The position numbers were made by a program. From the NCBI RefSeq assembly GCF_003334255.1, contig NZ_QOWU01000008.1: a stretch of 64,000 bases of DNA. One strand, 5' to 3'. Below, in pieces: positions 53,101 through 61,714 of the stretch; the stretch's first letter is position 1, and each line of letters opens with the position of its first letter. Source of the stretch: Escherichia coli (GTDB taxonomy: Bacteria > Pseudomonadota > Gammaproteobacteria > Enterobacterales > Enterobacteriaceae).

Positions 53101-56100
53101 AGGCTTTGGCGAATTTCTCGCGGTTAGCCGGATCTTTCACGTACTGGTATCCCGGATACGTATCCGGCAGCGCGCCCATATCGCAGGCACCCTGAACGTT
53201 GTTCTGACCACGAACCGGGTTAACACCCGCATGCGGCTTACCGAGGTTACCGGTCAGCATCGCGAGGCTGGTCAGAGAACGCACGGTTTCCACGCCCTGG
53301 TAGAACTGGGTTACACCCATGCCCCACAGGATGGCGGCGCTTTTCGCCTGGGCATACATCCGTGCCGCCTGACGAATCTCACTGGCGCTGACGCCGGTGA
53401 TATCTTCAACCGACTCCGGCGTGTAGCCTTCAACGATTTTACGATACTCTTCAAAGCCTTCTGTACGTGAAGCGACGAACGCTTTGTCGTACAGATTTTC
53501 TTCAATAATGACATGGCCCATCGCATTCAACAGCGCGATGTTCGAGCCGTTTTTCAGTGCAATGTGCATGTCAGCAATGCGCGCGGTTTCAATTTTGCGC
53601 GGATCGCAGACGATAATTTTCGCCCCGTTACGTTTAGCGTTAATTACGTGATTCGCCACGATTGGGTGGGAATCCGCCGGGTTGTACCCGAAAACGAACA
53701 CTAAATCGGTATTATCAATTTCGTTAATAGCATTGCTCATTGCGCCATTACCGACCGATTGGTGCAGACCTGCAACCGATGGGCCGTGTCAGACACGAGC
53801 GCAGCAGTCAACGTTATTGGTACCAATAACGGCGCGCGCAAATTTTTGCATTACATAGTTGGTTTCGTTACCCGTACCACGCGAGGAGCCGGTCGTCTGG
53901 ATGGCATCCGGACCGTACTTCTCTTTGATGGCGCTCAGGCGCTCGGCAACGTAATTCAGTGCCTCATCCCAGGAAACAGGTTCGAGTTTGCCGCCACGCT
54001 GGCGACGGATCATGGGGGTTTTCAGGCGCGGGGTCAGGATCTGGGTATCGTTAATGAAGTCCCAGCCATAATAACCCTTCAGACACAGGGTACCCTGGTT
54101 GGTTTTCCCCTGCGCTGCCTCCGCCCGGACGATTTTGCCGTTATCGACGACCAGGTTGATTTTGCAACCTGATGCGCAATAGGGGCAAACCGTGACGACT
54201 TTTTTCATCGGTCTCGCTCCAGTTAATCAAATCACGCATACGCGCTCTCGACTACAGTATGCATCTTTTATGCCACATTTTATGTGGGGTCATTCCCTGA
54301 TATTACGGGCACTATTTATTCAAAACTCTGACGAAAAACAGGCTGTCGTCAGTTTTGACGTGACGAAACGAAATACCGCGTGACAGCCATCACGCGGCAG
54401 ACATTTTATTTTTTCTCGACGACGGGACCTGCCTGATACCCGCCGCCCAGCGATTTCATCAACTGAATGCTTTGGATCACCCGGCGGCTGTCCAGCATCA
54501 GTAATGACATCTCTTCGGCAAGCACTGGCAACCGGGCTTCGGTGGCCTGTAAGCGGCTGGTTAAGCCGCGCTGATAGGCGGCCTCGGCAGCGCGCTGGGT
54601 AAAGCGCGTGGCTTCCACGCGTTCAGCCTGCATTTCTCGCTCGTCGTTGAGCGTTTGCAGACGCGTGCCGTTGACGGCAACGTCACGCACCGCGTTCAGT
54701 ACTGACTGGTTGTAACGTTCAATCATCATGTTGCTGGCGGCGCGCGTGCCTTCGAGATTGGCATTCAACCGTCCACCGTCAAACAGCGGCAATTTCAGAC
54801 CCGGGATGAAGTTGAACTGGCGACTGGTTTTTTTGAATAAGGTATGCAGATGGATGGAGTCCAGACCGAAAAACGCTTTGATATCAAAGCTCGGATAGAA
54901 CAACGCCCGCGCGGAATCCACCTGATCTAATGACGCCTGAACATACCAGCGCATGGCTTGCAGATCCGGGCGTCTGGCGAGCAACTCATAAGAGAGTGTC
55001 GCCGGAATGCCGGTCTGGACTTGCGGTAATGCCACCGGTCTGATCTCCGGCATATCGCTGGCTCCCGCGCCAATCAATGCACGCAGAGATTCTCGCGTTT
55101 CGGTGATTTGCCCTTTGACGGCAACAATTTGTTTATCGACCGCCAGAATCTGTGCCCGCGCGCCGTGGAAAGGCACTTGCGCTTCCAGACCGTGCGCCAC
55201 TTTACTCTGGTGCGCTTTCACCGCGTAATCAATCACATCGTGAGTTTGTTCTAACAGATCGAGCATCTGATAGCTGGCCTGCATACTGTAATAAAGCTGC
55301 GCTACGCCCGTGGCCAGCGATAGCTCTACTGCTGCGGTTTCTGCCAGCGCGGCATTATGCGCGCCAATGGCGGCGGCAACCGCTGAGCGATGCACACCCC
55401 ACAAATCAAGATCCAGTCCGGCAAACAAACCTACTGTGGCTTCCGTATAGTACGGCCCGTCCATACCCAGTGCTGGCGCATCCATTGAATAAGGGCTTAA
55501 AAAGCCGTTCGCCGAGACACGTTGGCGGTTGAGCATCCCTAACGCTGCGACCTGTAATTGTGAACCGGCATCTAACAAATCGGCCTGGGACTGCGCTTTT
55601 TCTTCCCGCAGTTTCGCTTCGGCGAGGGTGTGTGAACCACTTAGCGTCCGTTGGATCAGCGCATCCAGCTGCGGGTCATTGAGTTGTTTCCACCACTGCG
55701 CCTGCGGCCAGCCGGAGCTGGCAAGATGAATATCGTCGGCCAGTTTGATTTGTTCCGGTTTGAGCTGTTGATGAGGTGCAGAATCCTTACGTACCAGGGC
55801 ACAGCCGGAAATCAGCGTCGTGCTGCCGAGAATGCTGCACAACAGCAGACGTGAAAGTTGACGATTGATCATTGCGTGGCTCCTTGTGCCTGTTCCGTGG
55901 CGGGCGTTAATGCCGGGGCTGTCCAGTCTGGCAAGCGGGCGAAAAGCTGGCAGACGTGTTGCTCCTGTTTTAATAAGGTGGGCAGGATGGCCTGAGAGGC
56001 GGGTGTCTCTTCAAGCGTTATTTGAGGAGAACGGCTGAGTGCGGTTGCCAGACCGGCAGCGTATTTCTCCAGGGCGTCGGCAAACTGACCTGCTCTGTCC

Positions 56101-59100: not shown

Positions 59101-61714
59101 CAATGGCGCAGAAAAACCAGCTGGGATAATAAGCGCCGATCACCGGGATTGCCGAAGATAATGAGCATCCCGAAACCATGAAGACGGGAATTATCCAGGC
59201 TGTTTTTTTGAGTTGCATCGCCATGCGAGAGAGAACTGTTGGCATATTAAATACATCCTGTCTGCTGCGAACAATATCTGTAGTGAATATCAATATCCAT
59301 TGAAGGCGTCAGTATGGCTATTTTCTTGATGAATAAAAATAGCTTTATTCAGCCACCGCATTCATAACTTATATATTTTATTTATTAATTGGCTGTATAT
59401 ATTTTTAAAATAAATACTTTTGGGGGCTTCAGCGCCCCCAAAAGCGAGTGACATTAATTTGGGGTTACGATATTCACCCACAAATCGAAATTATCCAGAC
59501 AGGCGATAATTTCTTCCAGTTTCGCGCCATTGCCAATAATTTTGGCTTTCTTCGCTTTTACCAGATCCGCCATTTTGGCTTGTCCGGTCAGCACGGCGTG
59601 CAGATCTTCACGGCTGATGTAGAAAGAGGCGTCGGCTTGCGGTTGCAGCGTTTTCCGGTAGTTAAGCACGCTATCGTTCAGCGTCAGGTTGAGGTTATCG
59701 CCGTTGCTCATATTGAAGTTCAGGCTGATATTTTTACCCGCAGCTTTCGCGCTATCGAGGCGAACGGCCATAAAGTCGAACAGCATTTCGACCGACATCC
59801 CGCGAATGGTGTCCGGGGAACCGGTGGTGCCGTGGCTGAACTTATGCACCCCTTCGCGCAGCTCTTTCGCGCCGGTCAGGTAGAAACCGCGCCATGTGGC
59901 GGACTCGGCCTGATAGCCCAGCTGTTCAAAGTTATTCGCTTGCAGATTCTTCGCGACCTGGTCACCCGGGTTGGCGGCAATCACCTGTTTCAGCAGTTCT
60001 GCCGACCAGCGGTAATCACCTTGCTTGTTCGCTTCTTGCGCCAGGTTGATGACACGGGCAGAACCGCCCAGCGCCTGCACGTAACGTTTACCCATCTCCA
60101 CCTGACCATACGGATGCAGGTTAGCCGGGTTACCGTCGTAATAGCCAAGATAGAAGTTATACACCGCGCGGGCGTTGTGGCTGACAGAACCGTAATAGCC
60201 GCGGCTGGCCCAGTTATTGGCAAGTGCAGGCGGCAGCTTAATCATGTCGCCGATTTCATTCATGGTGTAGCCCTGGTTCGCCAGGTGCAGGGTCTGGTCG
60301 TGAATGTACTTGATGGTATCGCGGTATTTACCAATATAATCATTGATATGCTTATTGCCCCAGACCGGCCAGGTGTGCGGCATAAACAGCACTTCCGCGT
60401 CGTTACCCCACATATCCAGCGTTTCGTTCAGATACTCGGTCCACTTGCTGGTGTCGCGGGTTTTCGCGCCGCGCAGAGTGTAGAAGTTGTGCAGGGTATG
60501 CGTGGCGTTCTCGGCGGTACACAGGGCTTTCAGGGCCGGAATATAGAAGTGCATTTCGGCTGGCGCTTCGCTACCTGGGGTCATCAGGAAGTCAAACTCC
60601 AGGCCGTCGATAATCATCTTCTCGCCAGTTCTGACGATAGTTTTCGTCGGTGCAATAATGCTCGGGTCGCCCGTTGCCAGCGTCACGCCAAGGCCATTAC
60701 CCACATTGCCTTGCGCGTTGTGCGGCAGTAACAGACCGTAAGAGTAGAGCGCACGGCGGCTCATGATGTTACCCGCCAGCACGTTTTCGCTGATGGCTTC
60801 GTCCATAAAGCCTGCAGGGGCAATCACCTGAACTTTGCCGGATTTAACATCGGCTTCAGAGATAATGCCTTTCACGCCACCATAGTGGTCGGTGTGGCTG
60901 TGAGTGTAGATAACGGCAACAATCGATTTTTGCGGACGATGCTGGAAGTAAAGGTCAAGTGCGGCTTTTGCGGCAGGCGGCGTCACCAGCGGGTCGATAA
61001 CAATAATGCCTTTCTCGCCCTCAACGAACGTAATGTTAGAGATATCCTGGCCGCGCACCTGATACATTTTATCGGTGACTTTGAACAGGCCAGAAATACC
61101 GTTGATTTGCGACTGACGCCACAGGCTGGGGTTTACGGTTTCCGGCGCTGCGGCATTAATATCAAATTTGTAATCGTCCGCGCGGTAGTAAACTTTACCG
61201 TTCGCATCACGCAGAATACCTTCATCCAGCAGCGGGGCGATAAATCCACGCTGGGCATCGTCAAAATCCTGACGATCGCTAAACGGTAATGATTTGGCGT
61301 AATTCTGATTAACCTGTTGGGTATATTGAGTGGCGGCTTTCGCTTCCTCTTTCGCGTTAGCGGTATTTACCATCATGCCGCTGGCGGCAGTTAACGCAAT
61401 AACAATCCTGCTCAAACGGAATAACCGAGAGTTATTCATATAAATCTCCATTTATCATTTATGTCGTAAATATGTAATCCATGCAAAATACGTCATTTAA
61501 AGCTGGCGTTATCATAATTGGGAAATTGCGACTTTAATAAGTGGAAGTGTGAGCGGAACGCGCCATTTTATTAGGCATTTGTGCTGAAGAGGGAAAATTA
61601 CAGTAAAACTATCATTGCAGAAAATAATATGAGTCGTTTTATGTGTTTATTATATATATTGTACCTGTCGTTGGCACAGCGGGACATTGCGCTACTGTGC
61701 CAACGTTTTACTCA

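Follow-up and report, generated by a model that had tools for sequence, protein, structure and literature searches.

The alkyl sulfatase gene yjcS and the ytcA-mdtNOP efflux operon of Escherichia coli are probably adjacent but independent units

Introduction

Several efflux pumps of the FUSC or aromatic acid exporter (ArAE) family (TC 2.A.85) have been described, among them AaeXAB, FusABCDE of Burkholderia cepacia and FuaABC of Stenotrophomonas. The Fus and Fua systems include a NodT-type outer-membrane lipoprotein, and aaeR and fuaR are the regulator genes of the Aae and Fua systems. EmrAB-TolC and the pumps of the resistance-nodulation-division (RND) type combine a permease, an adaptor and an outer-membrane channel in three layers. 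Among alkyl sulfatases, the closest described enzymes are SdsA1 and Pisa1. Here we analyzed a 64,000-nt stretch of DNA from Escherichia coli (contig NZ_QOWU01000008.1; hereafter the window), in which yjcS, a gene for an SdsA1-type alkyl sulfatase, lies upstream of and on the same strand as the efflux genes ytcA-mdtN-mdtO-mdtP. An initial annotation of the window had taken this juxtaposition to suggest a functional link, i.e., the handling of detergents or sulfate esters combined with export.

The locus has features in common with each of these systems. MdtO shares the FUSC permease domain PF04632 with the ArAE pumps, MdtN is an AaeA/EmrA-type adaptor, and a small membrane protein, YtcA, is encoded first in the operon, as in AaeXAB; that the known substrates are lipophilic weak acids is a further shared trait. 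Unlike AaeXAB, however, ytcA-mdtNOP carries its own outer-membrane factor (OMF) gene, mdtP, YtcA, a lipoprotein, falls into a different Pfam family, and no regulator gene adjoins the operon in E. coli, which also sets it apart from Fua. With EmrAB-TolC and the RND pumps it has the three layers in common, and MdtN fits the model TIGR00998 above its cut-off, but MdtO has no reported domain of the major facilitator superfamily (MFS) or RND type and carries FUSC and FUSC_2 instead. YjcS resembles SdsA1 and Pisa1 in its full-length similarity, three-domain architecture, HxHxDH motif and signal peptide and in its activity on sodium dodecyl sulfate (SDS), as cited in PMC6107682. It differs from them in that it occurs in an enteric organism that does not degrade detergents, and in that its regulation appears to be tied to RpoN/NtrC binding (PMC8743547) and not to a dedicated LysR activator.

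Our results indicate that yjcS and ytcA-mdtNOP are two adjacent but independent units, to which we assign a probability of roughly 0.85. In this interpretation yjcS would be transcribed alone, from a promoter region of its own to an intrinsic terminator of its own, ytcA-mdtN-mdtO-mdtP would form a four-gene operon with translational coupling at two of its three junctions, and their side-by-side position would be chromosome-backbone synteny inherited in one enterobacterial clade, without functional coupling. That the two are neighboring units is already known and annotated. The suggested functional link between them found no support, given the terminator, the separate conserved region upstream of ytcA and the lack of any independent recurrence of the adjacency.

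Transcript boundaries between yjcS and ytcA

Whereas a single operon would be expected to have a short spacer free of terminators between yjcS and ytcA, the two genes are separated by 208 nt of 33% G+C, which hold a hairpin with a G+C-rich 12-bp stem and a T-rich tail directly 3' of the yjcS stop codon (−23.2 kcal/mol, z −5.6). We aligned the spacers of eleven enterobacterial loci and folded the region following the yjcS stop; alignments of the upstream regions comprised 11–13 loci. Equivalent hairpins were found in the same place in S. arizonae, Kluyvera georgiana, Pluralibacter, C. freundii, Pseudocitrobacter and Citrobacter sp. wls619, with folding energies between −17 and −23 kcal/mol (z −4.2 to −8.7) and a different stem sequence in each. 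Since the hairpin stays while the stem sequences differ, selection keeps the structure, that is, termination.

The pattern upstream of ytcA is the reverse of this, as the last ~130 nt before the gene are conserved in sequence across genera, and the conserved blocks start only downstream of the hairpin. They consist of ATAAGTTATGAATGCGGT, a dyad, the motif CATACTG and a leader with an AGGA Shine-Dalgarno sequence. The dyad, a perfect 8-bp repeat (GCTATTTT-N11-AAAATAGC, positions 59317-59343 on the minus strand), is kept in several enterobacterial genera and is adjoined by CATACT(G), a −10-like hexamer; the dyad is a candidate operator. Judged from its sequence, the ~130-nt region as a whole would resemble an independent regulated promoter.

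These observations also bear on the possibility of a read-through operon, in which a leaky terminator or attenuator would let the otherwise cryptic pump be expressed mainly on a yjcS-ytcA-mdtNOP transcript upon induction of yjcS, i.e., co-regulation without any shared substrate. The common orientation of yjcS and the pump genes is consistent with it, and A residues interrupt the U-tract of the terminator (AUUUAUUUUA), so that some read-through is possible. Furthermore, the promoter of mdtNOP is without experimental confirmation according to PMC11762307, and the candidate −35 element of ytcA, as read from the alignment, is poor (TTTTTA). Against such a transcript speak the long G+C-rich stem present in every lineage and the promoter- or operator-like conservation of the 130 nt in front of ytcA, a feature that genes transcribed from yjcS would not need. 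Two expression reports point in the same direction. In cusS mutants, differential expression was reported for yjcS along with zraP, pspG, hyc and ast, with no pump gene listed (PMC10920338), and yjcS was induced by triclosan, again with no pump gene listed (bioRxiv 10.1101/267302). Such lists are weak, text-level evidence for separate expression, but they count against read-through as well as against a shared function of the two units. Taken together, we consider a read-through operon very unlikely and two separately transcribed units the better interpretation.

Conservation of the adjacency across genomes

Searching with YjcS in one genome per species yielded 61 loci. Ten of them, with at least 81% identity, and one cut-off Escherichia fragment were all enterobacterial, originating from Escherichia species, S. 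arizonae, Superficieibacter, Kluyvera (two), Citrobacter sp. wls619 and Pluralibacter. In all 10 full enterobacterial loci, yjcS was followed downstream by ytcA and mdtNOP or by remnants of these genes, and fdhF came next in each except that of Pluralibacter, which stops at the contig end. Look-ups of exact proteins added C. freundii, Pseudocitrobacter and two Salmonella lineages, with the order yjcS-ytcA-mdtNOP-fdhF followed by yjcO and/or gltP. The initial annotation had made its suggestion depend on a linkage conserved outside E. coli; strictly speaking, such conservation exists, with the adjacency occurring in Salmonella, Citrobacter, Pseudocitrobacter, Kluyvera, Superficieibacter and Pluralibacter.

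Beyond this family the picture was different. No relative of MdtO, MdtP or YtcA was found within 10 kb at any of the 50 non-enterobacterial YjcS loci (42–72% identity), and a single one of them (L020) had a weak adaptor-like match ~6 kb away. The nearest full-length locus among them, from a deltaproteobacterium (67%), adjoins genes for a formylglycine-type sulfatase and an anaerobic sulfatase maturase. Together with four further loci that carry the pump genes (see below), these 50 gave no independent recurrence of the adjacency between yjcS and the pump, which is limited to one enterobacterial backbone block. Two seemingly distant YtcA homologs, P0317 and P0320, were rejected as independent loci, being frameshift-ridden assemblies of the same enterobacterial block.

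Since fdhF, yjcO and gltP were kept as well, the adjacency constitutes backbone synteny of a single origin. The neighborhood of yjcS and ytcA is as conserved as that of fdhF and mdtP, which nobody reads as functional. The left flank is more variable, and from the K-12 map we take its variants to represent the same backbone with insertions and deletions. They comprise als (in K-12), a response-regulator/lyxose island like OI167 of enterohemorrhagic E. coli (PMC10128022), phn, and pmrAB-proP-yjdM.

It is against this background that a cooperation of YjcS and YtcA-MdtNOP has to be weighed. The two could form a functional island acting on amphiphilic sulfate esters (alkyl sulfates, host-sulfated bile acids or steroids) in the enterobacterial clade, with the periplasmic sulfatase cleaving the ester and the pump expelling the parent anion or the membrane-active alcohol. 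Several points favor such a cooperation and thereby weigh against two independent units. The yjcS-ytcA-mdtNOP block has remained on one strand, in the same order and unbroken in seven genera despite the variable left flank. In Superficieibacter, yjcS is duplicated in tandem directly upstream of ytcA; the second sulfatase gene of Superficieibacter electus (L005:12092-14080) is intact and shares 84% identity with the first copy and 81% with E. coli YjcS. Moreover, alkyl sulfates are organic anions, the broad chemical class handled by FUSC pumps, and both products act in the cell envelope. Because of the single strand, the lack of any breakpoint in seven genera, the yjcS duplicate, the interrupted U-tract and the chemistry of organic anions, we keep the probability of this link above zero. 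However, the structurally conserved terminator, the separate conserved region upstream of ytcA, the single origin of the adjacency, the equal conservation of fdhF next to mdtP and the absence of recurrence in 50 plus four independent loci all argue against it, as do the allele histories and the phenotypes described below. We regard a functional island as very unlikely and infer that YjcS and the pump do not cooperate.

The four-gene cassette outside Enterobacteriaceae

A word-indexed search with MdtO recovered enterobacterial orthologs only, with at least 64% identity. By an exhaustive search of a representative library we obtained 1025 relatives at E <= 1e-10, the nearest full-length ones with 31–42% identity; among the best of these, four had a source name, of which three belonged to Paraburkholderia or Burkholderia multivorans and one to a "Burkholderiales bacterium". 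The same order of genes, YtcA-adaptor-FUSC-OEP, was found in four full loci (two from Paraburkholderia, one from B. multivorans and one from a genome with 46% G+C), none of which had a YjcS-like gene or another sulfatase gene in its 7-kb flanks. Only the adaptor, permease and channel genes were present in a 3.8-kb fragment of Burkholderiales type. The ytcA gene stands ahead of the adaptor gene in all full loci that we examined, those of E. coli and Burkholderia included. What evolution has conserved as a unit is the ytcA-mdtNOP cassette of four genes rather than the five-gene block.

Comparing E. coli with the Burkholderiaceae and other loci (L077-L082), identities amounted to 64–72% for MdtN, 46–63% for MdtP, 33–41% for MdtO and 34–43% for YtcA. 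MdtO and YtcA hence diverge much faster than MdtN and MdtP, and the ranking is the same within Enterobacteriaceae. The least conserved parts of MdtO are its soluble stretches 201-330 and 531-683 (15–35% in distant homologs vs 26–57% for the membrane domains). The high identity of the adaptor between Beta- and Gammaproteobacteria hints at a lateral transfer of the cassette. In B. multivorans, the OMF gene of the module overlaps at its end with a gene for a MarR-family regulator (L081:10578-11057). E. coli lacks a MarR gene at this position, which fits an operon that is cryptic or controlled in trans.

Allele histories and losses

We examined a population sample of 5426 complete E. coli genomes. 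The mdtO gene was present in 5414 of them, with at least 95% identity in all but two. The alleles of yjcS, present in 5360 genomes, are split much more deeply, with only 80–95% DNA identity in 1649 genomes (1475 with 90–95% and 174 with 80–90%). Strain 08_3323, which is without als, shares 94.0% identity with the window in yjcS, vs 98–99% in the spacer, ytcA, mdtN, mdtO and mdtP; this step in identity places a recombination boundary at the 3' end of yjcS. It seems that yjcS is part of the left flank, which recombines and varies and in which als, the OI167 island or nothing may be found. A widespread replacement of mdtO alleles, as implied by "E. coli" clusters with 73% identity, was considered and rejected: all but 2 of the 5414 genomes had at least 95% identity, and the clusters are rare or mislabeled.

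The two units have also been lost separately. Citrobacter sp. wls619 kept yjcS and ytcA and lost most of mdtN-mdtP. Conversely, an IS1-mediated deletion of alsB'-yjcS in E. coli MB50 (L076) left the last 57 nt of yjcS together with the pump genes, of which mdtO contains an internal stop, and in E. coli LY180, KO11FL and SL112 an ISVsa5 element is inserted inside yjcS. These independent losses and the discordant allele histories further reduce the likelihood of a cooperation between sulfatase and pump. In addition, phnD is apparently fused to a 3' portion of mdtO in E. coli O111:H11 strain 8D. This junction resembles a laboratory deletion that activates mdtOP (PMC8672772).

Family and parts of the YtcA-MdtNOP pump

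All three major components gave full-length fits to their NCBIfam equivalog models far above the cut-offs (MdtP, NF007390, 1023.7 bits; MdtO, NF008510, 1370.5 bits; MdtN, NF007785, 535.1 bits). MdtO and all of its orthologs contain PF04632 (FUSC) and PF13515 (FUSC_2) according to precomputed Pfam results, and the only other NCBIfam matches of MdtO are models of the YccS/YhfK type. Neither an RND (ACR_tran) nor an MFS domain was found on MdtO among the precomputed Pfam and NCBIfam results, and a search by sequence returned no relative of solved structure for this protein. MdtN fits the EmrA/EmrK adaptor subfamily TIGR00998 (419.7 bits vs a cut-off of 390.8) and also matches the AaeA model (E 6.5e-42), PF25917 and PF25963 (Beta-barrel_AAEA). 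Its gene lies directly upstream of the permease gene mdtO, the two being joined by the overlap TAATG. MdtP matches TIGR01845 (272.8 bits vs a cut-off of 210) and PF02321 (OEP) and has the lipobox LISG|C24. YtcA belongs to PF17090, has the lipobox MVSG|C27 and shows weak co-matches to PF07869/DUF1656, the AaeX-type family. In a full-text literature search, the term "ytcA" retrieved only papers on the APOBEC "YTCA" motif.

By their domain content, MdtNOP are to be placed with AaeXAB and the fusaric-acid pumps in the FUSC/ArAE family. In the literature, MdtNOP has been filed as an RND component or acrB homolog (PMC8672772) and as an MFS pump (PMC8277102, PMC11762307); since the domains of MdtO are FUSC and FUSC_2, these labels constitute a misclassification. 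The correction matters for modeling of the pump and for reading "mdtNOP" entries in resistome surveys. The proteins would form an envelope-spanning efflux system of FUSC/ArAE type with MdtO as the permease, probably running on proton-motive force, MdtN as the adaptor and MdtP as the channel lipoprotein. YtcA may serve as an accessory small-lipoprotein subunit, replacing the small subunit of AaeXAB and the fusaric-acid systems.

Phenotypes of the pump

Increased susceptibility of mdtP null mutants was reported for puromycin, acriflavine and tetraphenylarsonium (PMC11762307). In an ocular isolate, an mdtO mutant had altered minimum inhibitory concentrations for sulfamethoxazole, imipenem, erythromycin and streptomycin (PMC6598151), of which the effect on sulfamethoxazole could be taken in favor of a cooperation with the sulfatase.

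The most informative case in this respect is a tolC mutant with an 8855-bp deletion from alsR to mdtN, which puts mdtOP behind the als promoter and confers mdtOP-dependent resistance to the protonophores pyrrolomycin and armeniaspirol (PMC8672772). This strain is without yjcS, ytcA and mdtN and is nevertheless fully resistant, and it becomes sensitive again when mdtOP is lost (PMC8672772). The pump therefore does not need YjcS in order to act, which is a further point against a functional island. Likewise, as resistance was obtained without ytcA and mdtN, permease and channel either need neither YtcA nor their cognate adaptor, or are served by a different adaptor. For a tripartite pump, functioning of MdtOP in the absence of MdtN and YtcA is unexpected. 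From the capture of the als promoter we infer that the promoter of ytcA-mdtNOP itself is silent. The operon thus appears to be poorly expressed in the laboratory, and resistance to lipophilic weak-acid protonophores would arise only if a foreign promoter is fused to mdtOP.

The sulfatase and its upstream region

YjcS matches SdsA1 (2CFU, E 9e-181), Pisa1 (4AV7, E 5e-184), 4NUR and its own structure, 4PDX, over the full length; the relatives of solved structure, matched over the whole length, are SdsA1, Pisa1 and PSdsA. Its three domains, a metallo-beta-lactamase (MBL), a dimerization and an SCP-2-like domain (PF00753, PF14863 and PF14864), are assigned in precomputed Pfam results on an identical or orthologous protein, and the binuclear-zinc motif HxHxDH is present as THSHTDH in the alignment. 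The Sec signal peptide ends with ANA|K30, and the crystallized chain 4PDX begins at residue 30. Activity of YjcS on SDS and hydrolysis of alkyl sulfate esters were reported by Liang et al. 2014, as cited in PMC6107682. YjcS would accordingly act as a Sec-exported, binuclear-zinc enzyme of the MBL fold that hydrolyzes primary alkyl sulfates such as SDS in the periplasm to an alcohol and sulfate.

A sigma-70-like promoter with a good match to the consensus, GTGCCA-17-TATAAT, precedes yjcS at positions 61677-61649. Just past the stop codon of alsK lies a perfect 11-bp palindrome (CGTTGGCACAG-N15-CTGTGCCAACG, positions 61669-61705), which presents TGGCAC on both strands and overlaps the sigma-70-like −35 element. 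In vitro binding to the spacer upstream of yjcS is on record for RpoN holoenzyme and NtrC (PMC8743547), and this palindrome may be its cause. Scanning for the sigma-54 consensus gave no −24/−12 site with at most two mismatches inside the upstream spacer of yjcS, and across the window the matches were at chance level (39 found vs 43 expected). Given the lack of a canonical site in the spacer, the reported binding of RpoN is not assignable to a canonical −24/−12 promoter.

Gene identities and coordinates

Positions 52000-64000 of the window are 100% identical to E. coli chromosomes of the K-12/MG1655 type, and this section was found in 5420 of the 5426 complete genomes. On the minus strand, the RefSeq annotation gives the order fdhF, mdtP, mdtO, mdtN, ytcA, yjcS, alsK (Table 1). 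The initial annotation had correctly recognized a small lipoprotein, a membrane-fusion protein, an exporter, a channel and an SdsA1-type sulfatase with a signal peptide, in agreement with the annotation and the family fits. Its description of tight linkage by overlapping start and stop codons applies to two junctions, which we read directly: the mdtO stop and mdtP start share ATGA (4-nt overlap), and the mdtN stop and mdtO start share TAATG (1-nt overlap). It does not apply to ytcA and mdtN, which do not overlap and are separated by a gap of 18 nt, nor to yjcS with its long spacer; close linkage as such is confined to the four pump genes. The genes sit where it had placed them (54406-61451), except that the start of yjcS is more likely at 61439. 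Position 61451 is the first ATG of the longest open reading frame (ORF) and lacks any Shine-Dalgarno sequence, whereas the annotated start at 61439 has GGAG 7 nt upstream.

Table 1. Features of the yjcS and ytcA-mdtNOP region in the window
Feature	Position	Strand	Description	Basis
mdtP	54406-55872	−	NodT-family outer-membrane factor lipoprotein, 488 aa	RefSeq, NCBIfam
mdtO	55869-57920	−	FUSC / aromatic-acid-exporter inner-membrane permease, 683 aa	RefSeq, NCBIfam, Pfam
mdtN	57920-58951	−	EmrA/AaeA-type periplasmic adaptor (membrane-fusion protein), 343 aa	RefSeq, NCBIfam
ytcA	58970-59245	−	91-aa lipoprotein with two hydrophobic helices, first gene of the pump operon	RefSeq, PF17090
Promoter/operator-like region and 5' leader of ytcA-mdtNOP	59246-59380	−	Putative function	Conserved in alignments
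Rho-independent terminator of yjcS	59416-59445	−	12-bp stem with 7 G-C pairs, 6-nt loop, then AUUUAUUUUA	
yjcS	59454-61439	−	Periplasmic type III (metallo-beta-lactamase fold) alkyl sulfatase, 661 aa, probably monocistronic	RefSeq, 4PDX
Sec signal peptide of YjcS, residues 1-29	61353-61439	−		Sequence reading; 4PDX chain start
Upstream region of yjcS	61440-61711	−	Sigma-70-like promoter and 11-bp palindrome	
Terminator-like hairpin closing ytcA-mdtNOP	54374-54399	−	11 pairs, 6 of them G-C; T-rich tail; precedes the fdhF promoter region	

Downstream of the pump operon, the fdhF gene contains a selenocysteine insertion sequence (SECIS) element at 53742-53796 on the minus strand (87 bits vs RF01988 of Rfam). 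Because of the in-frame UGA, the list of ORFs splits fdhF into 52061-53740 and 53789-54208. A −24/−12-like element of fdhF, TGGCATAAAAGATGCA, is located at 54260-54275, with two mismatches to the consensus. Apart from the SECIS element, an Rfam scan of positions 53700-62000 returned only a sub-threshold chance match on the terminator hairpin, and no known riboswitch or small RNA in the spacers.

Implications

The adjacency of yjcS and the pump genes should not be read as an operon. One could speculate that in the Escherichia-Salmonella-Citrobacter-Kluyvera lineage the sulfatase and a normally silent pump constitute a lineage-specific, two-step defense against amphiphilic sulfate esters of the gut, a scenario that we consider a distinct long shot. 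Its targets would be sulfated bile acids or steroids and alkyl sulfates, and the dyad upstream of ytcA would, just as improbably, be the operator of an ester-responsive regulator. If a link between the two units were nevertheless true, two poorly understood core functions of E. coli, a cryptic fourth outer-membrane channel system and an orphan alkyl sulfatase, would gain a role in its physiology, and the link would point to sulfated amphiphiles as the natural substrate.

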